Shown piece after piece: positions 8,101-56,485 of a DNA stretch of 64,000 bases. How positions within the stretch are numbered: the stretch's first letter is position 1; every line of letters begins with the position of its first letter. The notes under the pieces were generated by a model. It made no database searches and was not told where the DNA came from. It was given only the letters and a program-made list of their open reading frames with translations. The stretch spans positions 758,917 through 822,916 of the forward strand of contig OZ316892.1 in NCBI GenBank assembly GCA_973895155.1, in the 5' to 3' direction. This DNA is from Marsupella aquatica. Lineage: Eukaryota > Plantae > Marchantiophyta. Position numbers and translations under genes: made by a program.

Positions 8101-8319
8101 ATTACATCCATGTCTTGAGTGTGATGCCGATAGAACGATAAAGTCTTTTGCTGTCGTTCAAGATCCAGAACAAGAAGTAGTCTCCGGTGTAGCATGACAT
8201 TAGGTAAAGTGTTCAGTTGGTCTAAATTGCTACAAAAGTAACTATACTGCACCTTTGAGTTAGAAAAAGTTCAAAATTTATAATTTTTCTATCATTTCTA
8301 ACTAATGTACTGTATTACA
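5145..8319. mobile_element. Solo LTR, copy 1 (interrupted by an L1 fragment)
   Basis: Begins TGTAGTAT and ends GTATTACA; identical 5-bp flanks CTATT at 5140-5144 and 8320-8324; colinear similarity to 41833-43840. Confidence 0.9.
6042..7410 (-). mobile_element. 5'-truncated L1-type LINE (ORF2 C-terminus with zf-RVT-like zinc finger) nested in the solo LTR
   Basis: ORF 6242-7528 has W..LW.......KTFIWR and CKYC....ESMPHLFVQC motifs; A-rich tail at ~6042-6058 on minus; absent from the sister LTR; 5' boundary approximate and no TSD found. Confidence 0.85.
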
Positions 8320-8429
8320 CTATTCTCTCAGGTTGTGCCAAAAGACCACGTCAAGTTGATAAGAGGGATAAATGTCAGAAGACCATTCAAGGTTTTCTAA
8401 CTGTCAATTGAGTCAACAAGGCTCTAGCA

Positions 8430-11400: not shown

Positions 11401-11668
11401 ACACATAGCTCAAGATAATTGCTATGCTCTAATGTTTGATATACACACAGACTTGGTGTATGGTGAGTTTGCTATCACAATTGTTCCCACTATGAGTTTT
11501 GAGAGTCGGATTATGTACAAGAGTACTTTAGTTAGTCAAATGGTAGGGAACCCCTACCTTAGCAAGGACCGTCTGACACGGGTGAAGCAAAGTCTTTATT
11601 TCAACAATTTGGTGGATAAACTAAAAATGCGGGTTGGTGCTCCAACTATGATGATGAGTGTTGGTAGT
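8430..11668 (+). pseudogene. P-element-like DDE transposase, 5' part (many stops and frameshifts)
   Basis: Motifs in order: HASDGDSRRR (~9740-9770), DQDFIHNGKKLVNPL (DxxH), DRHNW..AQRL, FFRLWRMW, TGSNSCKQC.SK, YKSTLVSQ.VGNP.LSKDRLTRV; continues in frame at 32321. Confidence 0.65.
9809..10136. mobile_element. MITE-like insertion (328 bp) with poly-G/poly-C termini
   Basis: Ends CTCGGGGGGGGGGTCAC and TGACCCCCCCAAG are inverted; flanks ATTTCAGG (9801-9808) and ATTCCAGG (10137-10144); removal restores the frame DYTRRG-IPGPRQNLKWEGW of the host transposase. Confidence 0.8.
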
Positions 11669-12056
11669 AACCCCAATTTAGACAAAACCAGAATTTATTA
11701 AGTCCGGAATTCATAGTGTATATTATTTAATATTATATTTAATTATGATTGTATTATACATGTATTTTTTTGGTATATGATTCTCTTTAAACCATACACA
11801 AGGATAATACTTTCACAATCCATGGAGCGTAGCAATAAAAAATATCCTGTTTGTGAACATATAGTGTACATAGTACATGGAGGTTTACTCGGAATGAAAA
11901 ATTTAACATAAACATCAAATTCATTTGCAATAGAGAGTAATTCAAGATAGAGCTTTAAGATAATGTAACTTGGACACTTTTTATTATAGTGAATGTAGTA
12001 TCACAGACAATATGAAACATAGTCTTTAATCTAAAACCAAATTTAAATAACTCTAT

Positions 12057-12680
12057 TTAATCTTTGTAAATAGACACCTTAATGTCTCTACTTTTTTGGA
12101 ATTCTTCTCTAGGCCTCATTGACCACAATGGATAGTTGGATTTAATAAATCTATGTGCACTAACCTTTGAGTGAGCAAGTCTTAGAAGATAGGGCATGAG
12201 AGTGTTTTCTAAAAACTGGTCACCTAGATCACCGTAAAAGGGTTTTGGATGAAGTGCAGCATAATATGGAGAATCAAAACTTATAGATGCTGCCTCTCCT
12301 AAGAGTACTACATTTTCATATAAATACCCAGGGGCTTCTTTCATAACAATCTTGATATTCATTCCACACTGATTTGACTTAAGGTCGTCTTGTCGGCACC
12401 ATAGTATCTTAAAACTTTCAAGAGCCTTCTCAGTGAGAAGTGGATCAACATGATCGGCCACTTCATACCAATCAGTATGATTCCGGGACCAAAATCCAAT
12501 GTCAAAGTTTTCAGAGCAAAATTTTAAAAACTCTTGAACAAATGGTCTAGGAAAGATCATTTTCTTCTTAACGCAGAAGGCAGTCGAATTTCTTAAATGC
12601 CTTGAGAACCCAGCGGAGAAGACGAGAATGCTTTCAACATGGAAAAGAAGTAATTTTCGGGTAGAAACAAATTTTATAAT
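12057..12680 (-). CDS. FCP1/NIF-like HAD phosphatase-fold domain, copy 2 (catalytic Asp lost); probable terminal exon of the cargo gene
   Basis: RKLLLFHVESIL...IFPRPFVQEFLKFCSENFDIGFWS...ENVVLL...HPKPFYGDLGD; acceptor tgtgcag immediately upstream. Confidence 0.75.
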   Translation of the reverse strand: MIKFVSTRKLLLFHVESILVFSAGFSRHLRNSTAFCVKKKMIFPRPFVQEFLKFCSENFDIGFWSRNHTDWYEVADHVDPLLTEKALESFKILWCRQDDLKSNQCGMNIKIVMKEAPGYLYENVVLLGEAASISFDSPYYAALHPKPFYGDLGDQFLENTLMPYLLRLAHSKVSAHRFIKSNYPLWSMRPREEFQKSRDIKVSIYKD

Positions 12681-12796
12681 CTGCACAACACAAAACATGT
12701 CAGCAATTGAGCATTAAATAATACAAAACAAAAGAGGCAATAAACTAAATAAAACATTAACATTAAATATGCATGAGAAAAAAAGAGTCCTTACAT

Positions 12797-13489
12797 TTAT
12801 TGAAAAACAACGTCAGCGTACTCATTAAATCGTTTGAGGTGATGTGGGTCACTCTCTAACCTCACAGTGTCATTAGTTGACCAGATCATTCTATTTTCTT
12901 CCCAATCTTCAACTAGTGCAGACAATGACCAAGTAGGATATTTGTTTTGTATGGTTTTGTGCATTGTTTCGGAAGAGTTCAGGAGTGTTTTGAGGTATGG
13001 AATAAGAGTGTTGGGGAAAAAATTGTCCGCTATCTGTCCAGAATACGGTTCAGGGTAGAGAGAAGAGTAAAATGGATTTAGGCACGTTTTGTAAGGAGAG
13101 TCATCAATGAGTATAATGTTTTCACTATAATAGTCATTTTCTAGTTTCGAACGCAGATTTTTCAACTCTTTCAAGAAAATTGGTTTTTGGGTTTTGAAAT
13201 GGTTGCCAACTCGAACTGTGTCCTGTTGAGTAGCAATAAATTTTAACTGTTTTCTGTCATCACTAGTCAATACAGTTTGAAGGATAGGCTTAAGATTGTG
13301 CCATTGCATGCAGGACCAAATTGCAACGTCGAAGTTTGCTTTGCAAAAATCTAGAAACTCGCGCAAATACGGCCTCTTGTAGATGAACTTAGACCCGACC
13401 CGAACTCCGGCACTTTGGTCAAGTAGTTTGGTAGAATACACACTTAACAAAATAACTTTGTTTACATCAAGAATAATGAGTTTTTTCAC
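12797..13489 (-). CDS. FCP1/NIF-like HAD phosphatase-fold domain, copy 1; probable internal exon of the cargo gene
   Basis: KKLIILDVNKVIL, YKRPYLREFLDFC..NFDVAIWS, KPIFLKEL, ENIILIDDSPYK..LNP; acceptor gtacag precedes the ORF start and donor gtaagg follows the end. Confidence 0.85.
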   Translation of the reverse strand: MKKLIILDVNKVILLSVYSTKLLDQSAGVRVGSKFIYKRPYLREFLDFCKANFDVAIWSCMQWHNLKPILQTVLTSDDRKQLKFIATQQDTVRVGNHFKTQKPIFLKELKNLRSKLENDYYSENIILIDDSPYKTCLNPFYSSLYPEPYSGQIADNFFPNTLIPYLKTLLNSSETMHKTIQNKYPTWSLSALVEDWEENRMIWSTNDTVRLESDPHHLKRFNEYADVVFQ

Positions 13490-14349
13490 CTGTACATCAA
13501 GAAAAAAAATAATGAGAGAATTACAGTTTTATAAAATCTATGCAAACAAAACTAAATTTTTGCAAGACCCCATTTCTACTCTTTGAAGTAGCTGCTTTTT
13601 TAGTTGATATATCTCATCACAAAGTTATGATGTGTATCCCATTTCTGTCCGATGCAGAAATTCTCTTTCTGAAAGTGGGAACATCCTTTACCTGGTTGCA
13701 TGATGAGGTGATTTGATATTAGAATAAGCTCAAAAATATAAACCAGAGGCGATGAAATAAAACTAGACAGTACATTAAGGCTACTTAGGATAATAGAAAG
13801 TTTACCTTATGCCCTTGGAAAGGTAGTGGCATATTGAGCAAAACATCGGCGTATGCTTCATCTGTTTCATTTTCCTGTTCTTCATTGAGAGAATTTGGTT
13901 CCATCTGATCACCTTCGTTGCCATCTGACCTCGCATCTGACGGCCCATGGGTTGTAGCTAAAGAAGTATCTTCATTCAACTTTGCCCAAGCATGATCGCA
14001 TCGGGTCATGTCAATTAAAGCATTCTCCTCGGCCATCAAGCTAATGGAGGGCTCTCCAATCCGACCGCAAGCTTCTTCCATAAATATTTTATTCTCTCGA
14101 ACTCTTTTCTCTCTGAAGGTGTTATTAGAGTTGAGATATCATTCAAAACAGTAGTCCAAAATTGTCTCCCATTCCAAGCATGAAGTTTCAATTCATCGGG
14201 GAAGTATACTTCCCAGTCTGCAACCGAAATGTTATCTGGCCGAGTTGTGTCTTCAAGACTTACTACTGATCGAAAATAATTCCGGATATTTAGTTTCACA
14301 ATATCATTATCACCGGCTTTGTTCCAGTAGTTTTCTTCTCTTTCTCCAT

Positions 14350-14900
14350 CTTCTGTTACATTTTTCCCCTTGTATCCATCGCTCTGTTTGTTGCTCTCCT
14401 CCTTGTCATCACTACCTCGGTCTCCTTCCTTGTCATCACCACCTCCATCTCCTTGCTTCTCATCACCATCTTCATCTCCTTCACCATCCAGCTTCGTTTT
14501 TCCCTGCTCCTCATCACCACCTCCATCTCCTGCACCACCTCCATCTCCTTCCTTCTCATCATCACCTCCATGTCCTTCCTTCTCATCACCACCTCCATCT
14601 CCTTCCTTCCCATCATCACCTCCATGTCCTTCATTCTCATCTCCTGCACCACCTCCATGTCCTTCCTTCTCATCATCACCTCCATGTCCTTCTTTCTCAT
14701 CATCACCTCCATGTCCTTCCTTCTCATCACCACCTCCATCTCCTTCATTCTCATCTCCTGCACCACCTCCATATCCTTCATTCTCATCACGATCACCATC
14801 TTCATCTCCTTCACCATCCAGGTTAGTTTTTCCCTGCTCCTCATCCGCCCCTCCTCCTTCTTCAGTGTATGTAAATTGCCTTTGCTCTTTCTCATCTGCT
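14350..14900 (-). repeat. Coding minisatellite (GGDDEKEGH / GGGAGDENEG units) in the acidic region of the cargo gene
   Basis: 27-36 bp units of catcacctccat(g/c)tccttccttct; stop-poor, which explains the stacked ORFs. Confidence 0.9.
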
Positions 14901-17900
14901 TGCTGTTTTTGATCTTGTTTTTCTTTCATCCGCCGCTCCCTCCAATTGTCATCAAACTCCTGTTCGGAGTCATCGGTACCGCTGGTTGGTTTCTGCTTCC
15001 TTTTTGTATACTTTTGACAAGTATCAACTCGTCTCCTGTTTTGACTTTTCTTATGCTGTAAAGTCTCCATGTCACTTTCGTCACCCATATTCTTCCGCTT
15101 CTTTGAATGATTGTCTGCACTCATGGACTCATTTGAGCTCTCGTCTTGGTTTCCAGATTCTGACCCTGGTTCTTCATCATCGTCTTGGTTTTCAGATTCT
15201 GACCCTGGTTCTTCTACATCGTTTGGCTCCTCCTCACTTGATTCATACTCTCCAGTGTTGATTTCATCTTCAAAGATAGTAGACTTCTCATCTGAAACAG
15301 AGGAACAACAATCAGATTTCAAAATTTCATTTGTGCAATCAAGTTAGTGAATGTATTAAAATTAATCAAGTATATGGTTTCGGCTGACTAACCTTTAAGT
15401 GGTCCAACTGGCATCTTTGATGGGAAATAGTATATCCAATTCTGGCTGAGGAGGTTACTCAATTCATACTCTTTTAAAACTCTCTCAACGTTTTCATCAC
15501 TATATGTGAGCATGCTTTTACAATGATCAATTACATCTTCTTTGACTTCTCTGAAGGTTTTTCCTCGAGATATCTTCGCATTCATCATTGCCTCAAGCCT
15601 TTTTCTGTCGAGACATGGTGCTTTACTGGGATACAAGACACCAAAATACCCACTCATTTCTGTGTGAAATGATCGTTTACAATAAGATCTAACCTTAACT
15701 CCTTCTTCCTGGAATAAACAAGCAAGATGTTAGAGGAACTTAAGATAAGGTTAAAGCTATTCAAAAATAGAATTGTAATAATACTTGAAAGCTTACCAGG
15801 AGGCATTTGACCAAGTTTAGCCCTTCTCCAAAACAGACAGCACGCTTTCCGTTGTCGAGAAACAGTCGAGTCAAGTATTGGAAAAAGAGAATACTTTTCT
15901 CACCAGGGAAAGACCTAGCAGCCTGATCCTCTTTAGACTCCTGAAAGTTAAGGAGAGTTCCCCGAGTTTGTAGACTGGACTTAATTGCTTCCCCTATCTT
16001 TGTCATGTCGGTAGATTTTGATAAGAGAGGTTGACAAAATGCATATGTCACAGTATATGTAACATCCCGCTCTGTGTTAAAGAGGGAAATATGAGACTTT
16101 TCGGTGCCTCTTCTCTGGACGTAAGTTGTTTGGAATGGGAAATATCCTGGAGTTGACACTAACTCTCTCATCATGAAAATAGACTCAATAGGATCTGAGA
16201 CATGGACAAGGACATGATTTACCGTCCCCATCTGTTTAATTGCTCTGATGAACATAGAGTAAAAACTGGATATGAATGGACCGTCATCAGATAGAATAGT
16301 GGAGTCAAAATAGAAAAAGTCTACCCGTTGTCTCAGGGACTCAGAGATTTCGTCAAGAAATTTCTTTGTTTTCAGACCTTTCCGCGAGTGTAACTGAAGG
16401 ATATCCTTGATTTGGGGAGGCTTCAGGTTTCCAAACTCGTCAATGCAGTTCTTTGTTGCGGCAATTAAGCTCTTAAAAGCCTCTGGGAGAAGACTCTTCA
16501 TTGTTCCAACACTGGTTGTTTTCTGCGACGCCTTGTTGAGATACTCCTCTCCTAGTGAATCCCTGATCCTGCTCAGCTTTTCTTTATTAAGATGATACCT
16601 CTTGCACAAGATATCAACCTCAACTTTCCTCTCAATCTTTTTCAGGCTATTCAATTCAATACGTTTCATGCCACCGTCACCCAAGTTCTCCAACAGATCT
16701 ATCTCAAACATTCGCTTATGCTTCTTGTTGACACAAAATTCTTCCATGGAAATAAACTTTTCGGCTTCTTCAGCATCATAATCTTTTGAATGGGGTCGGT
16801 CCTTCAAAAGAGATATCTTTGAATTCTCCAACAAGTAGGCGGCAACCTTGTCTATGTCAGCTTCCTCCATCCCTTGTAGATCTCGGAAGCATCGCCTATT
16901 CAGTTGCCAAGTCTTCCGGTTACTGTAAGTTATTGCCTGAGCTTGCGTTTTACCATTGAACGCTATAAGGGATCCTGTACGAGACTTCTCATATACCCGC
17001 ATCCATTTGTTGAATGTTGCATCGCTCATATGAAAGATAAACGGATTGAGCTCGGTAAATGAAAACATTTTCATCTGCCGTGCCCATGGAACAATAATCT
17101 TGGCAGCTTCAAGGAACACCTGAATATAAAACATTACAAAATATAATATTAGAACCCTACAGAAAATACAGATTCAAGTCATTATGTTCAATGTTACCAC
17201 ACAAACCACGGGTTGTAGGGCTCATGCTATCTAGAAGTGTCTGATAATTTACCTTCCATTTTGACCCCTTTGCCTGAGCATTCTCTTTTCTTGGACTTCC
17301 AAACTCTTTCCATACTGCACGTGCTTGGGACGCTATCAACGGAAAGTTAGTCTCGTCAAGTTGAGTTCTCTGGATATTGTTCAAGGCTCGAGAGAGTCCC
17401 ATCATCGTGAGGTTTTCTTTCAAACTGTATGGGGACCAGAACATAATTGCCTGAACCTTGCGAAGATCCTCCCGAAATGTGCATCGCTTATCATCTTCCT
17501 TGAGGATCGCCTTGTATGCCATTATTGTGTGCTGCCCACCAAGAATCCAGAAGTGACAAGTGTTGGTAATATCATCACTCTGCGGTGCCTCTTTTAGAGG
17601 AGTTCCATAGTAACCTTTTGATTTGTTCTTTGAGTCCCATGTTATTGGGACAAGAAAGCAGAGAGTTTTTTGAAAGGTTATCGAGGAGTAGCCAAAGAAA
17701 GCAGCCTTCAGTTCGGTGGCATAATCTTCATCAAAGTCATGACATTTTATGTGATTTGGTGCCAGGTGACATCTCTCAATAGGCACCTCAAAAGTCTTGC
17801 TCTGAAAGATGTTCAGATGAGAGTATGATTCTAGAAAGCTGCAAAATAATTCATCCACGTTCTCCGTCGTGATATCCTTTGGAGGATTTGATGCCAAAAT

Positions 17901-18564
17901 CCCCCCTTTCCCGGTGACAGAAAATATTTTGGTGAATGGTTGTTTTGAGAACTCCAAAATGGCATTGATGTATCTGGAGATACTTTCTGGATCTGGAACC
18001 AATGGTGCAATGGGAAAGCCCTCCCAACAATTCGAACCAAGCAATTCTGAACTTGAGGTGAGATATTCTGTGACTTTCCGCTGGGAGAAAGTTCCATAAT
18101 CCATTCGATCAAAGCAAACCCCAATTGTTTCTCCAGTTTCTCTTTCGTCAAAGAGAAGTACCAATGCTTCTTGTAGGTCATCAAGCCCCATATTTCGCTT
18201 GAAGATGCATCCCACAATTTCTGCATCCATGACAATATGTAACGTCTCCTTGTGCGTGAAACATATTCGCAATTCCTTATTCTGGAGTACTAATCCCCAA
18301 TCAAAGACGTTGCTTGACTTCACTCTATAAATTGAGCTGGCTTCCGGTGAGGTAAGGTCCCGTATCTTTTTCCCTCGATATGTTTTGATCATTTTCATCT
18401 TATCAAGCTGGTCAACAATTGAGCTTTCGGTCTTGCTCTTTGTTTGGGAGCTGCCATTTCTAGGAGCCATATCTGGAGTCACACAAAAAACAAGGAATTT
18501 TGTTTAATTAAAAAGGAAGGTCTCTCTATAGTTAGTTTGTTTGAATGGATGACAAACACAGCCA

Positions 18565-19133
18565 ACAGCCCGCGGGTGGTGAGGTATGCTAAACAGTTGA
18601 TCCAAGTGAGCCTCAGGGCCCGTGGGTGGTGGGGTGTTCTACACAGTCGGTCCAAGTGATCCTCACGACCCGCGGGTGGCGAGGTATGCTAGACATCCGG
18701 TCTTAGTGAGCCGCACTGCCCGCGGGTTGCAAGGTATGCTAGATAGTAGGTTTGAGTGAGCCTCACGGCCCGTGGGTGGTGAGGTATGCTATATAGTCGG
18801 TCTGAGTGAGCCTCACGGCCCGCGGGTGGCAAGGTATGCTAGAGTGTAGGTCTGAGTGGCCTCACGGCCCGTGGGTGGTGAGGTATCCTATACAGTCAGT
18901 CTGAGTGAGCCTCACGGCCCACGGGTGGCAAGGTATGCTAGACTATAGGTTTGAGTGAGCCTCACGGCCCGTGGGTGGTGAGGTATACTATACTGTCGGT
19001 CTGAGTGAGCCTCACGGCTCGCGGGTGGTGAGATATGTTGAGCTTTTAGTGAGTTGCACGTACAACCCGCGGGTGGTGAGGTATGCTAGACAGTCAATCC
19101 AAGTGAGCCTCACGGCCCGCGGGTGGTGAGGTC
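18565..19133. repeat. 50-bp tandem array (~12 copies), each with a 24-bp imperfect palindrome CCTCACGG-CCCGCGGG-TGGTGAGG
   Basis: CGCGGG/CGTGGG/CACGGG cores at ~18571, 18621, 18671, 18721, 18771, 18821, 18870, 18920, 18970, 19020, 19068, 19118; lies ~100 bp upstream of the cargo ATG. Confidence 0.95.
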
Positions 19134-21989
19134 CTCTCTTGTTTTATGAGCCTCCTAAGCCCCCGGATCAATAGTATACTCATTAATCAATATATTCATT
19201 AGCAATTGACCCAAAATCTAGTTAGCTAGGCTCGAGAGGGTGTGATTGAGGGGCTAGGATTATGTGACGGACAACCCTTCATAGTTTATATATGATTGAT
19301 CTATATTTTGGCTAGAGTAGCCCCTGTGGATCAAGAATCATTACCCTTCTTTAATAGTGATAGTACTCATTACAAACAATTGCTAATCTCCTGATAACAG
19401 TCTTTCCTCATAATCTCTTTAATATTGGTGGCAATTGCGTACAATTCATGGACGAGTTCAACTCTACAATCTTTACTATGAACCAGACAATGAGTTCCAA
19501 AAGCTCTTACCTCAAGATTTTTGTTCCCGGATTTTGTTGGGCTCTAATCTCTTCAAACTTCAGCAGATTGTTGTTTCAGTGTGTAAGATTGAGGCATCGC
19601 AGGTAGACTATACCCCGCACAATGCTTGTCAAGGATGTAGGCAGGAGAAGCACTAGAAACCTGCAAAACAAATTGACACACTTGTTTTTTTACGCAGAGT
19701 GATGCAGTTGCGGTAGATGTACCAACTACGGGCAGAAGGAATCACATTGAGATCAAGAAGATCGACAGACAGATTGAAAATTTCAATCTGGAAACTAAAC
19801 AAATTAACAAATGTGCATTGATACAATAGGATTTTATCACAACAACATTGGGTATGAATAGTGGATGCAATCACGGATAGTGGATAGTGGATGCAATCAT
19901 GGATTAACTAGTCAGTGGATACTGAAATTTTGACATCTTCATTACATTTAGATATGACACCAGGGGCTTACCTATAATTATTCCAAGGGTGCAAATTTTT
20001 GAGGAGCAGGTCGGAGTAGATGCTTGGGACGATTAGGCCAAATTGTTGTTAAATCCCTGGCGGCTATGGAATCTGAGCACCATGGACCTGCACAACATTT
20101 GACCCAAAGCCAGAGTGAGACACAATCTCAATCACAGGAATCATCCATACTCACTTATCTGATTAGGAGGCCATGGATTTCATCTTTGACAGAGTACTTG
20201 AAGGGAAGGAGTAATTAGTACAGGAGAACCAATCTCAACAGCACAGTACTCACAACATATTGAAACAAAGAGCCGAGAAACTTTCGTGCCTCCCAAATTT
20301 CCAAAAATAATGACATTTGGCTCAGTGACCTACTGTGTACTTGTAGAGGGCCCACATAGCTGGGCTCTCTGGACTACAATAGCAATCTATGAAACCAATG
20401 AATTTGAGAACAAGGGCAGCAGGGTTTAGGATACTATTAACACCAATCGCTGTACATTCCAAAACAACACCTCATTTCAAATAGATCCCTACCTGACAAC
20501 CTCTACCTATGGGATTACATAGCTCAATGAATGATCGGCTGACCTCAAACTAAAAATGTCATCTTTACATATCCAGATGAACGATGATGAATGATGAACG
20601 ATTTCCAGATATCTAGATGAACTATGAACGATTGCCAGATGAATGATGTCTTTGAAGAAAGACAATTGATGATCTTTGAATTTGGAGCTACTTGACTACC
20701 TTGATTGCAGGCAGATTAGAAATTATTGGGATGACTAATGTCACCTTTAACAAAGAAACAACAGATTTGGTGCAACCGGGGTTGCAGCTTAAGTTATCAG
20801 GAGGCACACAAACGGACCAACTTGACTGCTCCACAACTATGAAAAATTAAATTCGAACAACAACCACAACACAGGCTTTAAGGACTACTACCCTAAACAA
20901 CTACGTTCCTTCTCCTCTATCAAGCATCAAGATTGAGAACGATAACATTATTTGACAACATTCCATAGACCCATGCAAACATAGACTTCTCACAGAATAA
21001 GCGGCCTGCGAGAGATCCCAAATGCGACTATCTTGCTTGTTGACATAGTAGATCATGATCATTCACATAGCAGATCACGTATTATGGCAAACACATCATT
21101 TACTGTCCAATGTAGTCTCCAACAATGAGTCGAGCAATACAAGGCAAGGCAATCACACCTGGATGGATTATTGACAATGGATGGATACCGCTCTCCACAA
21201 CGTGGTCACCACAAAATCCGTAGTCAACAATGGATCATCCAGGCTCTGTCACGCACATTTGCATCTGAAATCGCAAAAAGCATAGTCAACATACTTAGGG
21301 AGAAGGGGCTCGAAGGCTGACAAAAGTCTGAGAAGTCTAAAAGGAGAAGTCTGAAAGCAGGAAAGCATTCCAAGAAGCACAAGGCTAGGAAAGCATTCGA
21401 CAGGAGGATTGACAAGCCTTTGAACAATATATATATATAGGTGAGTTTTAGTACCTTTCAGAGCTTGTACATACAAAGACATCGTGCCTCACTCCCGCGA
21501 CGTTTGCTCTCAACCAACGCAAAACACATTGGTGCCTCCAAAAAACGCAACCTAGCAACACAAAACTCCTCATTCATCAATTCACTTTCGCACTTGCCAT
21601 CCAAACGGCATTTCAACCCAACGGTGTCCGACCCACTAAAAGTCACTACCGACGGTAATTAATTCCCCTCCTTTCTTGCTAGAAACAATGATACTATTCC
21701 GATTGTTGAAGATATACTCTTGCGACTTCACAAAGTGAACCAAATGAAATGATTTAGGTTCCAGTCAAGGTGTTGCATACCTCAAATGTCTAGCTCATTT
21801 TTGGAGAAAGAGAGCTCCTTGCCCCGACACAAAATAGTATCAGTACAAAGCAATCCAGTTCTCAATTGAACACCTCATGAATGCTTTGTACGTTCGTCCG
21901 CAAAATAGTATCAGTTCTCAATTGAACACCTCTTGAATCAAATGGTAGTCTCTAGAATCGCCATATCGATCAACCTCATATAGATCCTC

Positions 21990-22200
21990 AATCTCCCTTC
22001 CGCACAATGTCGACGACTCCCTTCAGTCTCCCTTCCGCACAATGTCGACGACTCCCTTCAGTCTGACTCGTTCGCTTCAGTTCTTCCGCACAATGTCGAC
22101 TCGGTGTCTTCGACAATCTGACTTGTTCGATTCAGTTCTTCCGCACAATGTCGACTCGGTGTCTTTGGCAGTCTGAATCATTTGATTCAGTTCTTGAACG
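21990..22200. repeat. Short degenerate repeats ttccgcacaatgtcgac (4 copies)
   Basis: Copies near 21998, 22033, 22084 and 22139. Confidence 0.8.
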
Positions 22201-22329
22201 TGATCGGTAGTACTCAAACAGGCGCGAGTGGGGAAAAACGTCGCCATCATCTAGTGCGCGCGCGAGTGAGCAAACACATCACCATCATCCAGTTCACAAT
22301 ACCCGTCCTGCTGTACGTTGATGCTATCA

Positions 22330-25300
22330 CTTGATTGAGTACGTTGATTCCCTGGATGGAAGTATACTTAAATGCCAGGGGTTTATCAGGTAGCCCTATG
22401 CTCCATGTTTGGGTAAATAATGGACAGAAGTCTAATTTAATGGAAGGGTTTAGCAGGTATTGCTATTCTCCATGTTCATTGTGCAGCCCTCGATGGAAGT
22501 ATAATTTAATTGAATTAGGGGAGTTTAGAAGGTATCCCTAATATCCATGTTAGCTAGTCAAACCCTAGCTAGAAGTATAGTTTAATTGATTGAAGTGGGA
22601 TTTATAAAGTATCCATAAGTATACATGCTCCATGTTAGTGCAACCCTACTGGAAGTACAATTTAATTCAAGGGGTTTATCACGTATCCCTAGCCTAGGTT
22701 CCATGTGTGTGCAACATGGAAGGAACCTGGGCAATTTAATTCGAGGGATTTCATAAGGTAGATCCCTATTTCCCATGGTGGTGCAACCCTGGATGGAGGT
22801 GCAATTCAATCCAAGGGGTTTTATATGGTGTTGCTCTGCTCCATGCATGTTACTTGAAGGCGTGGGGTTTGATAAGGTATCTCTACGCTCCATGTTAGTT
22901 GAAGGGGGTTTATAAAAATACCTATGCCCCATGTTTGGGCAACCCTATAAGGAAGTAGAACTTAGTGCAAGCAAGGTTTAATAATGTATATAGTTTAATG
23001 GAACTAATTAAGGGGGTTTTATAAAGTATACCTATGCTCCATGTTAGTGCAACCCTGGATGCCTGGAAGTATAATTTAATGCAACTGAGGGGTTTTAAAA
23101 CGTATATATATCCCTAAGTCTGCTCCATGTATGTTAGTTCAACCCTACCTGGAAGTAGAATTACGTTGGAGGGGTACCCTAGTAGAAGGAAGTAGAACTT
23201 AGTGCAAGCAGGGTTTTATAAGGTACACCTAGCTACTAATTATGCTTCATGTTTGGGAAACCCTGGATGGAAGTATATCATTGGTTTAATGGAACTCGGG
23301 GTTTAGAAAATATACCTAGTATGCTCCATGTTAGTGCAACCCTGGATGCCTGGAAGCATAGTTTAACGCCGGAGTGGGTTTACAACGTATCCCTAGTATG
23401 TTCCATGTTAATTAGCGCAACCCTAGCTGCATATCTAGTTTAATAAAGGGGGTTTATAACGTATACCCATGCTCCATGTTAGTGCAACCCTGGATGCCTG
23501 AAAGTATAATATAATGCAAGGGGTTTTAAAACGTACGTATATATATATCCCTAAGTCTGCTCAATTTTATGTTAGTTCAACCCTACCTGGTCCAGGAAGT
23601 AGAATTACGTTGGAGGGGTACCCTAGTAGAAGGAAGTAGAACTTAGTGCAAGCAGGGTTTTATAAGGTACACCTAGCTACTAATGCTTCATGTTTGGGAA
23701 ACCCTGGATGGAAGTATATCATTGGTTTAATGGAACTCGGGGTTTAGAAAATATACCTAGTATGCTCCATGTTAGTGCAACCCTGGATGCCTGGAAGCAT
23801 AGTTTAATGGAGGGGGTTTACAACGTATCCCTAGTATGTTCCATGTTAATTAGCGCAACCCTAGCTGCATATCTAGTTTAATAAAGGGGGTTTTAACGTA
23901 TACCCATGCTCCATGTTAGTGCAACCCTGGATGCCTGAAAGTATAATATAATGCAAGGGGTTTTAAAACGTACGTATATATATATATCCCTAAGTCTGCT
24001 CAATTTTATGTTAGTTCAACCCTACCTGGTCCAGGAAGTAGAATTACGTTGGAGGGGTACCCTAGTAGAAGGAAGTAGAACTTAGTGCAAGCAGGGTTTT
24101 ATAAGGTACACCTAGCTACTAATGCTTCATGTTTGGGAAACCCTGGATGGAAGTATATCATTGGTTTAATGGAACTCGGGGTTTAGAAAATATACCTAGT
24201 ATGCTCCATGTTAGTGCAACCCTGGATGCCTGGAAGCATAGTTTAATGGAGGGGGTTTACAACGTATCCCTAGTATGTTCCATGTTAATTAGCGCAACCC
24301 TAGCTGCATATCTAGTTTAATAAAGGGGGTTTTAACGTATACCCATGCTCCATGTTAGTGCAACCCTGGATGCCTGAAAGTATAATATAATGCAAGGGGT
24401 TTTAAAACGTACGTATATATATATATCCCTAAGTCTGCTCAATTTTATGTTAGTTCAACCCTACCTGGTCCAGGAAGTAGAATTACGTTGGAGGGGTACC
24501 CTAGTAGAAGGAAGTAGAACTTAGTGCAAGCAGGGTTTTATAAGGTACACCTAGCTACTAATGCTTCATGTTTGGGAAACCCTGGATGGAAGTATATCAT
24601 TGGTTTAATGGAACTCGGGGTTTAGAAAATATACCTAGTATGTTCCATGTTAGTGCAACCCTGGATGCCTGGAAGCATAGTTTAATGGAGGGGGTTTACA
24701 ACGTATCCCTAGTATGTTCCATGTTAATTAGCGCAACCCTAGCTGCATATCTAGTTTAATTGAAGGGGGTTATAACGTATACCCATGCTCCATGTTAGTG
24801 CAACCCTGGATGCCTGGAAGTATAATTTAATGCAAGGGGTTTTTAAATGTACATATATATATATCCCTAAGTCTGCTCCATGTATTTAGTTCAACCCTAC
24901 CTGGAAGTACAATTAGGTTGGAAGGGGTACCCTAGTAGAAGGAAGTAGAACTTAGTGCAAGCAGGGTTTTATAATTAAGGTACACCTTAGAGCTACTAAT
25001 GCTTAGTTCATGTTTGGGAAACCCTGGATGGAAGTATATAGTTTCATGGAACTAACGGGGTTTTAGAAAATATACCTGTACAGTAGTACATGCACCATGT
25101 TCGTGCAACCCTGGATGCCTGGAAGTATAGTTTAATGGAGGATGGTTTACAATTTATCCCTAGTATGTTCCATGTTAATTAGGGCAACCCAAGCTAGAAA
25201 TCTAGTTTAATTTAAGGGGTTGGGTTTATAACATGTCGCTATGCTCCATCTTAGTCCAACCCTTGTCGCTATGCTCCATCTTACTCCAACCCTAGCTAGA

Positions 25301-26085
25301 TATATCTAGTTTAATTGAAGGGGCTGGTATTAATTTATAACGTATCCCTATGCTCCATGTTAGTTGAAGGGGGTTTATAAAGTATTAAGGGGGACAGTTA
25401 CCCGGACAGTTAGCGCAACCCTACTAACTGGAAGTACAATTTAATTATAACATGTCGCTATGCTCCATCTTAGTCCAACCCTTGTCGCTATGCTCCATCT
25501 TACTCCAACCCTAGCTAGATATATCTAGTTTAATTTAAGGGGCCGGTATTAATTTATAACGTATCCCTATGCTCCATGTTAGTTGAAGGGGGTTTATAAA
25601 GTATTAAGGGGGACAGTTACCCGGACAGTTAGCGCAACCCTACTAACTGGAAGTACAATTTAATTCGAAGGGTTTATGAGGTAACTATCCTGAGTGATGC
25701 TCCAATGCTTCATGTATGTGCAACATGGAAGGAAGTGCAATTTAATTGGAGGGATATTATAATAAGGTATCCCTATGCTCCACTTTGAAGGGGGTTTATA
25801 AAGTATTAGTACCTATGCACCATGTTTGTGCAACCCTAGAAGGAAGTAGAACTTAATGCAAGCTAGAGGGATTTTATAAGGTACACATGGGCTTCATGTT
25901 TGGGAAACCTTGGATGGAAATATAGTTTAATAAATGCTGGATATATATATATATATAGTTGAAGGGGGTTTGATAAATTATCTCCATGCTCCATGTTAGC
26001 GCAACTCTAGCTGGTCCGGATATATAGTGTAATTGAACTAATTAAGGAGGTTGTCTTAAGGTATCCCTATGCTCCATGTTTACAA
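22330..26085. repeat. Satellite: ~55-70 bp monomers organised into ~440-bp higher-order repeats with diverged monomeric flanks
   Basis: Monomer core ctatgctccatgttagtgcaaccctggatg...ggaagta...gggtttata; near-identical short ORFs start at 23249, 23690, 24129, 24568 (period 439-441). Confidence 0.95.
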
Positions 26086-27693
26086 TAATATATACCATAG
26101 TAATATTACAGTACATTTAATATCCCAATCATATATTTAACGTAACTGAAATAATATTTAGTTTGTATGTTGGAAGGTAACGTATTGTCAGATTGAAAAA
26201 GCAATGTTGAAAGTATTGACGTAATTGCAAACATAGTAGATCCAACATCGTATTTTTATAACGTCTACAGTATAAGCAAAACGTGGATCCGGCCGTCAAA
26301 TTGCATCCAAGTTTTCCCTCCAAGAGAATTGTATTTGAAATTTGAATTTGAATGATGCTCAGAGTGAGCGTGAATCATCATGCAGACTCTTGCACCGGCC
26401 TCAATCTTCAGTTCTCGCCGAGGTTTCTTTTGTAAGGCCTTGCACCAGCCTCAGTCGACTTCAGTCCTCATGTTTCTTGTGTACCCGCTTGTGTAAGGTC
26501 GCGTTAGTCTCGCTTGTCTTGCAATCTCTTTGTTGTGGTCACGATACTGGCTTATTTCACATTGCGCATTCATCTTCAATCAATCCTCGTCTGAGTTTCA
26601 AGTTTGAGGTATAGCAATTGTTTTAGTGATACTTCTTGGTCGAGAGCTTGATCGGTTAAGGCTCTCTCCCATAATAGCTTAAAACTTGCGGGAGAGAGCT
26701 CAACCGGCTGAGCTTGATTAGAGGAGAGGAGTCATTCAAGAGGAGAGCACTACCGGCTGAGCTCATTTAGATCGAGGAAAGTCACCCACGTCGAGACAAT
26801 TCGATCAGAGGACCGAGAGTAATCTAGGGAGAGCTCGATTACCTGAGGAGATCGATAAGGAGCTAGCTTCTCTGGAGTGATCGGGAACAACATTCAAGCT
26901 ACAAGAGAGTGTCGTCACTCAGCATAAGGTATGCAGTCTACTTTCAAATCCCTAATTTATTGTTTGGTTCATTGTGTATAATTTGTAACCTGTTTATATC
27001 TCTTCTGGTTGAGTCTGTGTGTTAAATTTCTTCGATCCCGTGACTGATCAAAGCAATTTTGTTTCTAATGTGATGAACGTAAACTCTATTCATGTACTCA
27101 GATTCAATTCATGTATTCAGATTCAATTCATGTACTCACATTCAATTCATGTTCTTTGTGAAAGTTCGAATCGGATACAATATTGTATATGCTCTAGAAA
27201 TGGATTTTGTTGTACGCAAATCTAAAATTTTGGAGTAACTACTAAACCCTAAAATTCTTTAAAACACAAAATCTAAGATCACAATTTCACCTGAAGACTT
27301 GACCAGTTGCTGGAAATAATTAAGTTTGCTGCTCACTTGAGGTGAAGTGTTTCTCATTTTATGAACAAACAACATCAATCATCTGTTCAGATAGTAAACC
27401 AATTTTAAATAGCCCTTCATAATTTTGAATAGCCCTTATTAATTTTCATAATATTCAGTCAGGGAGTGAGATCTCAACCCTAAAATTGAACTCCTGACCA
27501 CATCCGAACATCATGTAACAAATTAAACAATTTAATCAGGAAATCAAATCTAAACCGTTTGATAAGCCGAATAAACTCAAATCTAGTCTGAACCCTTGAT
27601 AACTACTATCATGTGTCAAAAGGGGACAATATTCATTATTAATATCATAATTTCTTGTGACCCTAATTTGGAACCCGTGAGGAAATAGGGATA

Positions 27694-27717
27694 TTTAGGG
27701 TTTAGGGTTTAGGGTTT
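27694..27717 (+). repeat. Short plant telomeric-type (TTTAGGG)3 tract / telo-box
   Basis: tttagggtttagggtttagggttta. Confidence 0.7.
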
Positions 27718-28405
27718 ATATATCCACACCCGGGGTCCTAAAATTTGTACACTGCACAACCCACAGGCTGTAGGGTCCTCCATCTCTGATTGATAGAATT
27801 CAAGAGAATTTCTTGTAATGTTTTCATAAAAATGTTATTACATTCTAGTTATTGATAAGGTTTATCAGCCGCCAGCCTACTGATGGTCGATGAATTTGTG
27901 TACCCTGCAACCCGTGGGTTGTGGGGTATTGAGTTGATTGTTGGGTACACAATGATACTTGGTGTCAAAACTTACTAGAGCCAGTTAATCCTTAGCTAGA
28001 CACCTTTTGTAGATGTTGCACATATATATATATATAACAAAGAATATTGTTTCTTGGAGGGAGCATCTCTTGAATGAAGCGAAATCAATGTTGTTCACAA
28101 CCCACGGGCGGCAGGGTACTGATACCTCAATAAGTATTGTTCACAACCCGCGGGCGGTAGGGTACTGATACCTTGAGTTAAGTTAATCAACAAAGCCCAG
28201 ATGCAGGGCACCTTAAATTCCAATCTGAGCTACAAAGATGACATAATATCCAAAACATTATTCTCTGATCTTTAGAGAACCTTCTTTTTTTAGAAAGTTT
28301 TGTGATAGAGTGGCATCGTTTTGGGATTCGGATAATTTGAGATAAGGGCAACCGAATAATGTAAAGTGGCTAACAAATATTATATATTGCTATTGCAGAA
28401 CTAAA

Positions 28406-31400
28406 ATGTCTACGACCATCCTGTCTTTTGAAGTGGGTGACATGGTCGGATTGTTTGGCTCAAAGATATTGGTTGGGATGGGAAAGATTTTTAGTAGTGA
28501 TCCCACCAGGATTTGTCACACGGTGGAGTTAGGTCCGGATCATGTAATGGTGGAGGTTATTGAATGTTTGGATGAAAAGTTCATATTTTCTGATGGAGAA
28601 TACTTGAAGCATTTGATTGGATCCTTTCTTGTTTGGGATAAAAATGATCTCAGAGTTCATCCCTTTAGAGAGAAACACCCTGAAGTCCATGTTGATGAAG
28701 TTGACAATATTAACAGTGCCCGTGATAGTGTCCCTGGGGAAGTTGATCCTAGCACTATCCGACGAGTTGTACCACAAGTTGGGATGGTTGTGAAAGTGTT
28801 TGATGAAGCAAATGTTAATTTTGCTGTAGCGCTGATTACTTTTGTGACCCAAGGATCAACATTAGGGGAAATTATCATCGGAGACACACACATTGGGATA
28901 CTCATTACTGATTTTGTTGATGGCGCGACAAATGAGCACCTTAGATACAGGAATTGTCTTGTCCCTTGGCCTCTCAGCTTGTTGCGAGCTAGTGAAGGTC
29001 ATATGTTGAGCTTTCCAAACAAGGGCACTATTCCTATAGAGATTGATGCATCCAGTCGAAAGCGATCTTATGTGAACATTACAAGGAGAAGTAAAGTAGC
29101 CAACATTTCACTGTCAAAGAAAAGCAAGTTTCTAGACCGTGAGGATGCCAAAAACATTAGTAAGGTGGATTGTTGTGAGGAACAATGCTGCCAATTTTTT
29201 AACCGTGACCTTGCACATAATCTCCGAGAGAAACATTGGGCAAAGAGCTATCAGATGCGGAAGGAAGATGAAGTTACTGCTATTGTGAACTCACTCCATG
29301 ATGTTAGCGGTAGAGTGATAGTTGGTATGGAGGGAACCAATGGGAGAGGGGTTTGTCTGGAAGCGTGGAGGGTGATATACGGAAAAGGAAGAAGTCAGTT
29401 TTATGAGGTGAAGAAAATGGTAAGGGCAGGGGCAAGTATGTGTACTCATGGGAATCTTGGAAAACGATGAATGTCTGAAAGAGTTTCCCAAGCGCTTATG
29501 TCAATGAAAGGGATTATAGACGAATGCGCAGATAACCATCCAGCTAAGTTACGAACTATGAATGACAATACCCGCCAAGTACTTAGAGAACTTCCAATAG
29601 GTTTGAATTGGGAGAATTTGAGAAAGAAGGTGAACTCTAGGAACAAAGAGTTTGGTATTGGTCCAGTTTCCCAACCGACTATGAGTGTTCTGCGAAACAA
29701 TCACGTTAAGGAGGTGGGGATAAAGAAGAAAGGGAGTAACTTCTCAAAGTGCACGACTTGTTGTGAGTTAAATGAACGCAAATCCAAAATGACTGGAGGA
29801 AGAGAGGAAAGGGAACTTTTGAAGGTTGATGAGGACAGACATCACAAAGATCATACCGAAGGGAGAATGTTGTATCATGCTTGGAGGTTTGAATCGGTGC
29901 ATAGGCCAAAGGAGGTCTTGTGTATGATTCACGACAAGATGGATCATTGCAAGACTGCACTACCGAGAATGCCATGATGCCCAAAATCGTTGGATGGTGT
30001 GCAGAGGGTCCCGGTTACTCTTACTGGTATCTTGACTCATGGTCATGGTCCAAAAGCAATTGCCCAGTATAATATTGGAGTGTGGCCGGCTGATCCTAAT
30101 GCCTGCATTGGTTCCTTGGATTCAATATTTCGAATGCTAGAAAATCCGGTACCAATGGTGAAATCATTGCTTGAAGGACCAGATTCTACAGAGCTTTTTT
30201 CAAATTTGTTAATTGGAAGAATGCCCGTCTTGGGAGAAATGGTTCAAGATGCATTCAAGGAAGACATAGACTATGCATTCTTCCAATTTGTTAATTGGAA
30301 GAATGCTCTACCATAGGTAAGTACACGCATTGATTAGGTGTAGCAACTAGTCTATCCTTCTAGGAGTGAATCTCATCTTCTAATCGCATTTTTTAAATTA
30401 ATTTCTAGATCCAAAATATTAGCCTCTTAGAAAGGCTACAACCCGTGGGCTGTGGGTAAATCTCAAATATTGTTTTGGTTGAGATTGAGTAATAGTGTGT
30501 TTGAGATTACAATCTAGATGCATGTCATTGTTCTGATTGTTAAAATTTCTTATTTTTCAGGGGCTTTTGAAACATCATCTTTGACACAGCTATATAGACC
30601 ATTGCCAAGGATCTTGAAGTTACAACTTGATAATTGTGCTGGAGATAACAAAAACAGATTCATTTTGGCATATTTGTCACTTTTGACAGCGAGAGAGGTG
30701 TTCGAAGAAGTTCATTTGGGATTTCTGATGGTCAGACATACTCATGAAGATGTTGATGCAATGTTTGGTAATTTTTCGGAAGCTCTAATGAGGCAGCCAT
30801 CGTATACTCTCCCAGATTTAATGTCGCTACTAATGAAATCACGAAAACCAAATCCTGTTCCCCATTTTGTACAAGAAGTGCCTGATTTTAAAAGTTACTT
30901 AGCACCTTATATGTTGAAAGGGGGAGATACATTGGTGGGCCATTTGAAACCTTGAGTGTTTCGACTGTATGTTCGAGAGGATGGCATGCCTTGCATGCAA
31001 TACAAGCTAAAGGCAATGGATCAAGGGTGGCTTCCGAATGGCGGAATTGAAATGTGGTCATGGACAGTCAAGAAACGTCCTAACCTTCCAACCGGAACAC
31101 CAAAGAGGTTACCAATGACAGAGGTTAAAGTGTTGGAGGAGGTTCGAGAAGGTCTACTGAAGCAAGTGCACTTTTTTGAATTGATCATGAGGAGAAGTCA
31201 CATTGTGGAGGAACAAAAAACAAGTTGGGAGTCACTGATTGAATATTGGAACCGTGTGAGAGGCACTTTGGGTATAGAAGTACAATATTTTCCGGAAGAT
31301 GGAAATGAGTTGGTGCACGGATTTTGGCCTGTATCCAAATGGAGGGAGCATGTTCCATTAGCATACCGTAATGTTGCGTGTGAGTTGGATGCACAAATAG

Positions 31401-31874
31401 ACTATGTGGGGCCTCGGAAGGATAAGCCACGTGAGGTTTTTAACCCACGGATTGATGTTACAAAGGGTGTTTATGTCATGGTGAGACCAGACACCCACGA
31501 CTTGGATACTTACCCAATCTATTTGGGAGAAGCGGTGAGTGATGTGGAAGAGGGAAGTCCAAATGATCACAACCAGATAGAACACATGTGTGAGATGGTT
31601 ACGACCTGTCATGCAAAAAAAACGAGGTCAACCAGCATGTGAGCAAGCAAAAGTACGATGGCTCAATTGTTGGAACAAGAAATGGGAATGTGATCCTGAG
31701 TATGAAATAGAGAGAATTAGTGTGAATACTGTGCTATGGTGTTTCAAATCGCGATCTACTGGAAAATCTGGTTTGATTTCAATTCCAAAAAGACATACTG
31801 AGAAAGCACAAAACAATCTTACTAGATGCATTGAGAGTGAGGTACCAGGAAATGGAGAAGAAAATGTTGAATAG
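28406..31874 (+). pseudogene. Sola-like DDD transposase (three in-frame TGA stops, one frameshift, one intron ~30317-30560)
   Basis: FSKCTTC, MIHDKMD..KTALP, LQLDNCAGDNKN, FLMV(R)HTHEDVDAMF motifs; consecutive in-frame ORFs 28406-29470, 29471-29977, 29990-30316, 30561-30955, 30956-31642, 31590-31874; acceptor ttgcag just 5' of the ATG. Confidence 0.85.
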
Positions 31875-32320
31875 ATCTGCTTGGATATACAAAATGATTG
31901 TTATTACAAGATAGTACTTACTTAGTGCAGCTGCAGTATTAAGTATCATTATTATGATACACTGGTAAATTTAGTTTAATATGTACTTGACAAGTATAGC
32001 TTGACGCCAAAGATTTCAGGATTATTGTAGGCAATACAACCAACCATGGATTGTACATGTTTCCTTATTTCTATGTAAATGACCCTTACTATAGCTCAAG
32101 GTCTCGCTCAAAAGTGTGCAATTTGAGATTAAAGATTTGAGTACACATAATTTGTTTAATCAATGACAATGACAACACAAGTGTATGATTGATTTATAGA
32201 ATATCATTATAGGTTTGAATGGGGCTTAATGTATTTAATTGTATTTAATTGTATTTAATTGTATTTAATAAAATCCGGAAATTATCCAGAAGTCCAATTT
32301 TGTCTAAATTGGGGTTTAGT

Positions 32321-32779
32321 GATTGTGGAGTGTTTTTTGTGGATGAGAAGGTACAGGGAAGAGTGACAAGAAGCACTGAGACCACACAGAATGGCAAACA
32401 GAAGCGAAGGAGGCCAAGTGGTTTGCCAATTCCAGTTGTGTCGGTAACCAATAGCCCCAAATATGTTTGGTGGATAGGGAGGGCCCAAACTATTCAACAA
32501 CCACATGGAAATACAAGCGAGAGATCACGAGAACCAGTGGACTTGCTTGATAGGTCTGGTCCAGAAGTTGCATGCAAAGTGTTCTTTAATTGGTTTACTC
32601 CGATTGGTAACAATAAGGAAATGTTTAGATACTCTGTGTGTGATCCTCAATGGATTGATTTAGATTGTGTGATATCAACAGTCACCCTTGAAGTCAATCC
32701 TTTGCATCCAAAGGTCTTCAAATTGCATCCAGATGATGCAATTGCATTGGATAATTTTATAAAGAGCAAGATTGATTAA
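32321..32779 (+). pseudogene. C-terminal continuation of the P-like transposase split by the 20.6-kb insertion
   Basis: DCGVFF...WWIGRAQ...REPVDL...NWF follows the right TSD in the same frame as ...MSVGS before the left TIR. Confidence 0.8.
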
Positions 32780-56346: not shown

Positions 56347-56485
56347 ATCTACTGTATGGAGTAATTGTGGTGCATAATGACATGTTTCCTACGTGACAAG
56401 AGTATTATCTAACTCCCTCCCAACCAGATTTGCCATCAAGTGAGCTTGCTTGTCTTTTAATTTCCACTTTCACCTATCGATTTTG

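Follow-up and report, generated by a model that had tools for sequence, protein, structure and literature searches.

A tandem palindrome array and related scattered sites accompany a ParB-fold accessory gene in a liverwort transposon

A 64,000-nucleotide stretch of the genome of the liverwort Marsupella aquatica (contig OZ316892.1, positions 758,917 to 822,916; hereafter the window) contains a DNA transposon of 20,648 bp, delimited as 11669-32316 in window coordinates. The transposon carries a DUF7869 transposase gene and, on the opposite strand, a cargo gene whose predicted protein has a ParB/sulfiredoxin-fold domain. A motif of ~22-28 bp with the palindromic core CCCRYGGG occurs at 19 sites in the window, all within this one element. 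Twelve of the sites form a tandem array beside the cargo gene, and the others lie singly. The window shows the ParB-plus-array design of algal transposons in a liverwort, with different partner domains and with motif sites in introns and in front of the transposase gene. The motif most likely provides predicted binding sites for some element-encoded protein. We tentatively propose that the array and the scattered sites are self-recognition sites for the ParB-fold accessory protein of the element itself.

A motif confined to one transposon

The array begins 89 bp upstream of the cargo ATG (from 18470 to the first unit at 18559) and consists of 12 units of 50 bp. Anchoring on the core yielded 12 cores from 18569 to 19116, with successive spacings of 50, 50, 50, 50, 50, 49, 50, 50, 50, 48 and 50 bp. 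Tandem Repeats Finder delimited the repeat at 18568-19132 with a period of 50, 11.4 copies, 77% matches and a score of 615. An earlier, sequence-only reading of the window had proposed ~12 copies at 50-bp spacing, which agrees with both analyses. The unit consensus is TGAGCCTCACGGCCCGCGGGTGGTGAGGTATGCTAGACAGTCGGTCTGAG, and its 24-bp palindrome around CCCRYGGG is self-complementary at 20 of 24 positions by direct reading. The 24-mer named in the earlier reading has a single exact occurrence in the window, at 19108; within the array it is matched, always on the + strand, four times with at most one mismatch, nine times with at most three and 12 times with at most five.

Motif enrichment was measured within the 64-kb window. 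CCCGCGGG occurs seven times against 0.08 expected, with six occurrences in the array and one at 28147, and CCCRYGGGT has 19 matches against 0.79 expected. Within the array, 29 of 288 palindrome cells differ from the unit consensus, compared with 57 of 293 spacer cells. These counts correspond to divergences of 10.1% in the palindrome columns and 19.5% in the spacer (column permutation p = 0.008). The array and the single sites are listed below (no strand is assigned unless given).

18557-19137: tandem array of 12 x 50 bp, with the palindrome CCTCACGGCCCGCGGGTGGTGAGG in each unit
17195-17222: site in cargo intron 1, 25.3 bits; exact 13-mer CTACAACCCGTGG on the - strand
27901-27928: best palindrome, TACCCTGCAACCCGTGGGTTGTGGGGTA, 22/28, 24.2 bits; DNA hairpin of -8.3 kcal/mol, z -4.2
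28137-28164, + strand: site 242 bp upstream of the transposase ATG, 21.5 bits; the sole CCCGCGGG outside the array
28091-28118, + strand: first site of a pair 46 bp apart, 17.6 bits; inverted partner of the 27901 site
27750-27777: site upstream of the transposase gene, 16.4 bits
30432-30459: site in the transposase intron, 10.2 bits; exact 13-mer on the + strand
13934-13961: weak site, 8.7 bits, core CCCATGGG; 13-mer with one mismatch, inside open frame 13785-14138

The single sites were scored with a weight matrix derived solely from the 12 array units, and block-shuffled windows served as the control. All 19 sites of at least 6 bits lie inside 11669-32316, and the 43.4 kb of the window outside the element contains none. 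The association of the motif with the element, on which the earlier reading depended, is thereby upheld within the window. The matrix recovered all six single sites named in that reading and added a seventh, at 13934, between the acidic frame and the NIF frames of the cargo region. The maximum score in shuffled windows averages 10.2 bits, with a 95th percentile of 16.2, and these windows contain 1.36 sites of at least 8 bits. Five single sites (16.4-25.3 bits) exceed this percentile. The sites at 30432 and 13934 fall under it and are secured instead by recurrence of the 13-mer CTACAACCCGTGG, which has four matches with at most one mismatch (13945, 17206, 27905 and 30436) against 0.03 expected. 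The consensus common to the single sites is YRCRRCCCRYGGGYKGYRGGGTA.

The sites had been described earlier as palindromes in non-coding DNA. The first term suits the 27901 site (22 of 28 positions self-complementary) and the array units (18-20 of 28), but not the other single sites (10-16 of 28). Thus, the recurring feature is a sequence motif with a palindromic core rather than a hairpin, and the sharing of sequence instead of hairpin strength fits a protein site. The second term holds for the array and the six sites named earlier, whereas the weak seventh site lies in an open frame that may or may not be coding.

Approximately six independent placements of the motif can be counted, two of them in introns. 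Four sites are located 242-656 bp upstream of the transposase ATG, and one site is found in a short intron of each gene (133 nt in the cargo gene and ~244 nt in the transposase gene). No site of at least 6 bits and no CAACCC half-site occurs in 11669-12200 or 31800-32316, and the site closest to an end lies 2.2 kb away from it. The sites do not represent classical subterminal repeats. Short runs of the plant telomere repeat TTTAGGG are present at 27694-27718 and 56485-56519; the first run ends 32 bp before the 27750 site and lies ~690 bp upstream of the transposase start.

The boundaries of the element were found by searching for inverted matches between both sides, which returned one exact 19-mer pair.

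11665-11668: left target-site duplication TAGT, both flanks read directly
11669-11687, + strand: left terminal inverted repeat AACCCCAATTTAGACAAAA, a 19/19 inverted match to 32298-32316
32298-32316, - strand: right terminal inverted repeat, the inverted match to the left end
32317-32320: right target-site duplication TAGT; the interrupted frame resumes at 32321
22300-26100: complex repeat field between the genes, with five 439-bp units and 74-bp and 110-bp sub-repeats

Even with up to three mismatches allowed, the 19-bp terminal repeat has two matches in the window, against 0.03 expected, and similarity between the two ends extends ~80 bases inward. The element interrupts a reading frame. Open frame 11348-11701 closes a codon at 11668, and open frame 32249-32779 has a codon starting at 32321, so that excising the element and one TAGT leaves one continuous frame. 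The terminal inverted repeats, the target-site duplication and the transposase gene are hallmarks of a cut-and-paste transposon. Pfam recognized no family in the interrupted frame or the neighbouring frames. The DNA that holds the right part of the interrupted frame (32318-32776) has a high summed contig depth, and given this depth the target of the element may itself be a repeat. The two element genes diverge from a 9.9-kb central non-coding region, and the window has ~40% G+C and GT-AG introns. The heptamer GCAACCC, which resembles the left half of the 27901 palindrome, occurs 24 times in the element, mostly in the 22300-26100 field, and twice elsewhere in the window.

The cargo and transposase genes

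What does the cargo gene encode? Its recognizable parts run leftward from the array in the following order, all on the - strand.

17253-18470, - strand: exon 1, 406 codons, with a PH-like domain (residues 31-178) and a ParB/sulfiredoxin-fold domain (residues 221-370)
17120-17252, - strand: intron 1, 133 nt, GT at 17252-17251 and AG at 17121-17120; relatives end at the same ...KWK
15764-17119, - strand: exon 2, an open frame of 452 aa that continues the exon 1 frame from the acceptor AG at 17121-17120
14036-15343, - strand: acidic, Gly-rich, repeat-coding frame from the list of open reading frames (ORFs), with 27-nt coding repeats at 14395-14801
12057-13528, - strand: two NIF (FCP/SCP-type phosphatase-like) frames, probably the 3' part of the cargo gene; PF03031, E 2.2e-16 and 1.9e-09

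The assignment of exon 1 residues 221-370 to the ParB/sulfiredoxin fold is well supported by structure prediction. An AlphaFold2 model of exon 1 built on a 33-sequence alignment has a mean pLDDT of 80.3 and supersedes a model from a 3-sequence alignment (pLDDT 44.4). In the newer model, residues 221-370 superimpose on twelve ParB, Noc, KorB and PadC entries with Z scores of 8.3-9.8 over 90-117 residues (rmsd 2.2-3.2 Å for most rows), and a serine kinase, SbnI and sulfiredoxin follow these entries in the fold ranking. The ten top Foldseek matches of exon 1 are all ParB or Noc proteins. Furthermore, in a search of 48,161 representative chains that was independent of Foldseek, the top eight all have the ParB/sulfiredoxin fold. 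The ParB likeness suspected in the sequence-only reading is thus reproduced at the level of the model. The domain has no match in Pfam, and its likeness to ParB is one of fold alone. Residues 31-178 are weakly PH/PTB-like (Z ~5).

Relatives of exon 1 numbered two in a word-indexed search and 40 at E <= 0.001 among 1.84 billion representatives. They share the invariant motif FWI[LIV]GGQHT and, besides the NIF domain of a fern protein, have no Pfam content. That protein (P0067, Adiantum nelumboides, 990 aa) matches both the ParB-like and the NIF parts in the order and strand seen in the window. Because the two parts are fused in this order in P0067, a single cargo gene of >1,400 codons that includes both NIF domains is probable. 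The 27-nt repeats at 14395-14801 encode an acidic low-complexity stretch rich in Gly, Asp and Glu.

The other cargo parts offer fewer clues. Exon 2 has one homologue (P0073, 56% identity), which carries no Pfam domain. A protein language model relates exon 2 to N6/N4 DNA methylases (PF01555; score 0.85, 143 shared features), but a hidden Markov model (HMM) search at E up to 10 gave no match and hence no HMM support for this lead. Weak kinase matches from a Protein Data Bank (PDB) sequence search with exon 2 (E 0.03 or worse) were discarded. A second language-model lead, to DUF3723 (0.94, 159 shared features), remains a lead, and a literature search on 'DUF3723' together with 'ParB' found no paper. 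Pfam detected no family other than NIF in the cargo frames and no ParA/CbiA-type ATPase in 11 open frames. The cargo relatives are all short Logan, ENA or NCBI records, none with DNA context, and a scan of viral contigs with the cargo alignment found no cargo homologue.

The second gene of the element encodes the transposase and is broken in this copy.

28406-31874, + strand: DUF7869 transposase gene, broken in this copy; Pfam PF25273, E 5e-36
30317-30560, + strand: transposase intron, limits approximate, GTAAGT at 30317 and AG at 30559-30560, between homology blocks e3 and e4

In-frame stops occur at 29468-29470 and 29975-29977, and the frame changes near 31588. Contigs from sequencing runs have C at 29975, five extra bases after 31588 and 29 bases fewer in 30275-30307, and other individuals or copies may be intact at these positions. 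A 35-nt inverted repeat (30190-30224 and 30275-30309) lies at the end of exon block e3 and coincides with the 29-base difference. The transposase can be aligned in successive blocks to metagenome loci and to long relatives with a single reading frame, for example P0015 (1069 aa). It matches DUF7869 as its only Pfam family, and a literature search on 'DUF7869' found no paper. The nearest named relatives of one window gene come from the liverwort Calypogeia fissa.

Candidate proteins at the motif

Which protein would recognize the motif? In the mechanism that we tentatively propose, the accessory protein, probably dimeric, would bind to the motif and thereby position its phosphatase-like and possibly methylase-like effector parts at both promoters. 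The outcome would be element-specific control of transcription or chromatin. Cargo-less copies in which the motif is retained would come under the same control in trans. The array itself may have grown via tandem duplication, as the VANC target motifs of Arabidopsis did. The ParB-fold cargo protein is preferred over the transposase because the array adjoins the cargo gene, because published systems provide parallels, and because a cargo protein acting in trans would also explain why cargo-less copies retain the motif.

The abundance of the element parts can be read from sequencing runs. Among six runs, none of them from RNA, four contain 84-87% of the words sampled from 12000-21999. Near-identical contigs represent the cargo, the centre and the 5' part of the transposase gene at depths of 44.6-56.9 in run X1 and 50.3-58.3 in run X2. 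The cargo has one extra, diverged contig that is ~85% alike over 16228-16827. A diverged genomic copy skips 14223-16228. The 1.1-kb array region is covered by 10-42 contigs per run, with a summed depth at most ~3-fold above the flanks, and these values rule out a genome-wide satellite. A second version of the array, at about half the depth, has one unit fewer, a CpG-to-TpG change in a core and unrelated sequence before 18623. Run X5 bears the label of a third organism; 151-base contigs from it, at depths of 3-13, are identical to portions of the element within 17046-19539 and 29520-29670. This could mean that the species is the same despite the label, that the run is contaminated or that the DNA was transferred recently.

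Related elements were sought in metagenomes with the transposase core, which gave 80 loci totalling 369 kb. The most informative locus, L011, is a contig of 2,977 bases whose transposase is ~48% identical in the core. It contains 14 CCCRYGGG cores, and its palindrome, CCCACGGGTGAACACCCGTGGG, forms a 47-bp x 6.4 array at 51-353 upstream of the transposase. A further copy of the palindrome, at 671-694, immediately precedes the transposase frame of 692 codons, and an apparent intron after 2771 has another two to three copies. The L011 palindromes and the array units of the window have the 10-base core CCCRYGGGTG in common; we infer that the chance of such sharing is roughly ~0.3-5%. The exact L011 palindrome has no match in viral contigs. 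Among the 14 closest loci, L001, L005 and L007 each show a recurrent palindrome of their own at 400-1100 bp in front of a long transposase frame, and L006 and L012 have other recurrent palindromes that lie partly within open frames. Dense palindrome arrays also occur at distant DUF7869 loci, namely L041 (167-425, AGGCCTCCTTAAGGAGGCCT x 6), L038 (12777-13093) and L048 (4018-6876).

Several observations weigh against the accessory protein as the binder. The first group concerns the protein itself. The model shows the ParB N-domain only: residues 371-437, where ParB carries its helix-turn-helix, have pLDDT <60, and two of the twelve ParB-family rows extend past residue 370, to 407. ParB proteins have an arginine-rich CTP-binding motif, GERRxRA. 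FWI[LIV]GGQHT may occupy the place of this motif, and such a replacement would make a CTP-dependent clamp doubtful. In addition, many proteins with the ParB/sulfiredoxin fold are enzymes. The second group concerns the DNA. Full CGCG has been lost by transitions in 6 of the 12 array cores (four CGTG, one CACG and one CTCGCG), and CpG observed/expected is ~0.5 over the window. Such CpG-to-TpG/CpA or similar changes, with more in the second genomic array copy, point to a methylated history and not to protection from methylation. Recurrent palindromes also occur at 13 of 66 distant transposase loci and, as two other families, in the 43 kb of the window beyond the element, so that the trend among relatives is weak when taken alone. 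An unrelated palindrome family, GACGCTT..AAGCGTC, has seven copies in 600 bp at 42781-43358, inside a repeated segment (41833-43841 resembles 5145-8320 at 70-81%).

The third group concerns gene content. The catalytic part of the transposase has a summed depth of 543-750 in run X1, compared with 44.6 for the cargo, and belongs to a multi-copy family. A high-depth transposase variant skips most of the intron yet repeats the motif segment 30425-30463 twice in tandem. A cargo homologue was found in 0 of the 80 related transposase loci (369 kb), and L011 has an array with the CCCRYGGGTG core but no cargo on its 2,977 bases. These last two findings make the transposase a live alternative binder.

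In this alternative, which we consider unlikely but the strongest of the competing explanations, the DUF7869 transposase would bind the motif via its Cys-rich N-terminal part and auto-regulate both promoters, with the cargo placed under the same control. The transposase is the only protein known to be common to the window and L011, both of which have CCCRYGGGTG arrays upstream of the transposase and in an intron. The palindromes of L001, L005 and L007 take a comparable upstream position, and the multi-copy transposase variant of the same genome keeps and duplicates 30425-30463. Moreover, a 2026 preprint reports that transposases can be sequence-specific transcriptional activators of their cognate copies (10.64898/2026.08.24.746577). 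However, no site or CAACCC occurs in the outermost 530 bp on the left or 515 bp on the right, unlike usual transposase-binding subterminal repeats, and the largest motif cluster adjoins the cargo gene, not the transposase gene. L011 starts inside its array, so a diverging cargo gene may lie beyond the contig end. The sizeable background rate of recurrent palindromes also tempers the comparison with other loci.

Could the array be a neutral minisatellite that arose by slippage from one palindromic seed, with the single sites as functionless relics of that seed? The units are 77% alike, half of the cores show CpG decay, and genomic versions of the array differ by one unit (joint 19047 to 19102). 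The transposase is broken, so this copy may be decaying, and other tandem repeats are plentiful in the same intergenic region. Nevertheless, we regard neutrality as improbable. Conservation is twice as high in the palindrome part as in the spacer, single sites lie in two separate short introns and upstream of a second gene 9 kb away, and a relative from another source, L011, has the same core in the same arrangement.

Somewhat less credit is due to the idea that the transposon drives its two genes by exploiting a transcription factor of the host, for which the motif would serve as a promoter or enhancer element. The sites lie close to both promoters, with start codons at distances of 89 bp (cargo) and 242-656 bp (transposase). 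The motif core also contains CGCG or CGTG, words of the type bound by plant CAMTA factors, and the recurrence of the core in L011 could stem from conservation of a host factor. A host factor leaves the intron copies unexplained, though, and the motif is long (22-28 bp), has element-specific flanks and is absent from the remaining 43.4 kb of the window, where other genes are present. A TCP or E2F site, judged by consensus sequence, was also considered and set aside, as most units do not fit on reading. Lastly, a structural role of the motif as cruciform DNA or as RNA hairpins affecting splicing, small RNAs or replication stalling is very improbable: folding is stronger than in shuffled sequences for the array units (z -2.5) and the 27901 site (z -4.2), and two sites are intronic, but no such excess is seen for six of the seven single sites (z +0.9 to -1.1), which are self-complementary at 10-16 of 28 positions, and an Rfam search of 11669-32316 gave no match.

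Relation to known systems and implications

Transposon-borne ParB-like proteins have been described in algae. PAG3, an accessory protein of giant red-algal Plavaka transposons, has a ParB-like N-terminal domain; tandem inverted-repeat arrays adjoin PAG3 genes across families, and PAG3 has been proposed to bind and modify its own transposon (Petroll et al. 2025, bioRxiv 10.1101/2025.02.11.637652). The window has the same three features, namely an accessory gene on a giant DNA transposon, a ParB-like N-terminal part and adjoining inverted-repeat arrays. The differences, drawn by comparing descriptions, lie in the partner domains and the transposase. PAG3 has a 2OG-oxygenase-like domain and resides on Plavaka and also on Zisupton and Fanzor elements, whereas the window cargo has PH-like and NIF phosphatase-like domains and a weak methylase lead, and it accompanies a DUF7869 transposase. 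In addition, its host is a liverwort, and motif copies occur also in introns and before the transposase gene.

A second algal parallel is Sola1-1_Ec32 of Ectocarpus, a 21.5-kb element whose ParB-like/methyltransferase gene, encoding 1104 aa, and transposase gene occupy opposite strands; its accessory protein has been suggested to bind and epigenetically modify its own transposon (Dinatale et al. 2025, PMC12477816). The window element resembles it in size (~21 kb), in having one ParB-like accessory gene for a large protein, and in the opposite orientation of that gene to the transposase. The Ec32 protein, however, has a clear N4/N6 DNA methyltransferase domain, whereas the window cargo offers the language-model lead without an HMM match. 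The portion of the Ec32 report considered here mentions no repeat array, whereas the window element has one. The Sola1 target-site duplication is 4 bp with the pattern AWWT/AWDT (PMC3845634); the single TAGT of the window, from one insertion, fits the length but not the pattern. With the same self-binding idea in print in 2025 for algal transposons that combine a ParB-like gene and an array, the claim of the sequence-only reading that the locus is the best candidate for an undescribed system does not hold, and the locus is better described as a land-plant variant.

The VANC motifs of Arabidopsis VANDAL transposons are tandemly multiplied and lie in introns and upstream regions (Hosaka et al. 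2017, PMC5735166). The placement of the window motif matches this layout, as had been suggested earlier. In both systems, a short motif is found almost only in non-coding parts of one transposon family and is tandemly multiplied. The VANC motifs are bound by an element-encoded protein, whereas such binding is predicted in the window. They are 8-9 bp, non-palindromic, in one orientation and CpG-free, in contrast to the palindromic-core, CpG-containing motif of the window. VANC is not ParB-like and VANDAL elements belong to the Mutator group, whereas the window transposase matches only DUF7869 and the cargo matches only NIF in Pfam. Methylation loss is demonstrated for VANC.

Bacterial modules provide a more distant parallel. 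As in SopB/sopC, KorB of RK2 and ParB/parS, a ParB-fold gene lies beside tandem repeats that each hold an inverted repeat. The sopC site of plasmid F consists of 12 x 43 bp, and the window array is close to this layout in unit number and length. Unlike the bacterial modules, the window has no ParA among the 11 frames scanned, it has GGQHT in the cargo with no evident arginine-rich CTP motif, and the cargo model does not resolve a helix-turn-helix. It is also a eukaryotic, intron-bearing gene in a transposon. The TnpA sites of Spm and the hexamers of Ac are subterminal transposase-binding repeats, whereas the window motif does not cluster just inside the ends.

Do ParB-like proteins of eukaryotic transposons bind the repeat arrays that adjoin their genes? 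This question was raised in 2025 for red and brown algae, and the present locus offers a compact test case with a 28-bp site, a 12-copy array, two intron sites and a modelled ParB-fold domain. The NIF phosphatase-like effector set is unusual and hints at action on RNA polymerase rather than on DNA bases. In its fullest form, which we consider rather unlikely, a land-plant transposon would have joined a bacterial-type ParB module to RNA-polymerase-CTD-phosphatase-like domains and placed a parS-like array at its own promoters and introns. The product would be a self-addressed chromatin regulator whose loading would be limited to copies of its own family, with cargo-less ones reached in trans, and which would rewire their transcription or silencing, in a lineage without a reported system of this kind. 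If the binding is true, the ParB-plus-array design would extend to land plants, where both liverworts and ferns have relatives of the cargo protein. It would also provide, beside VANC, a second and unrelated example of transposon self-marking via tandemly multiplied motifs.

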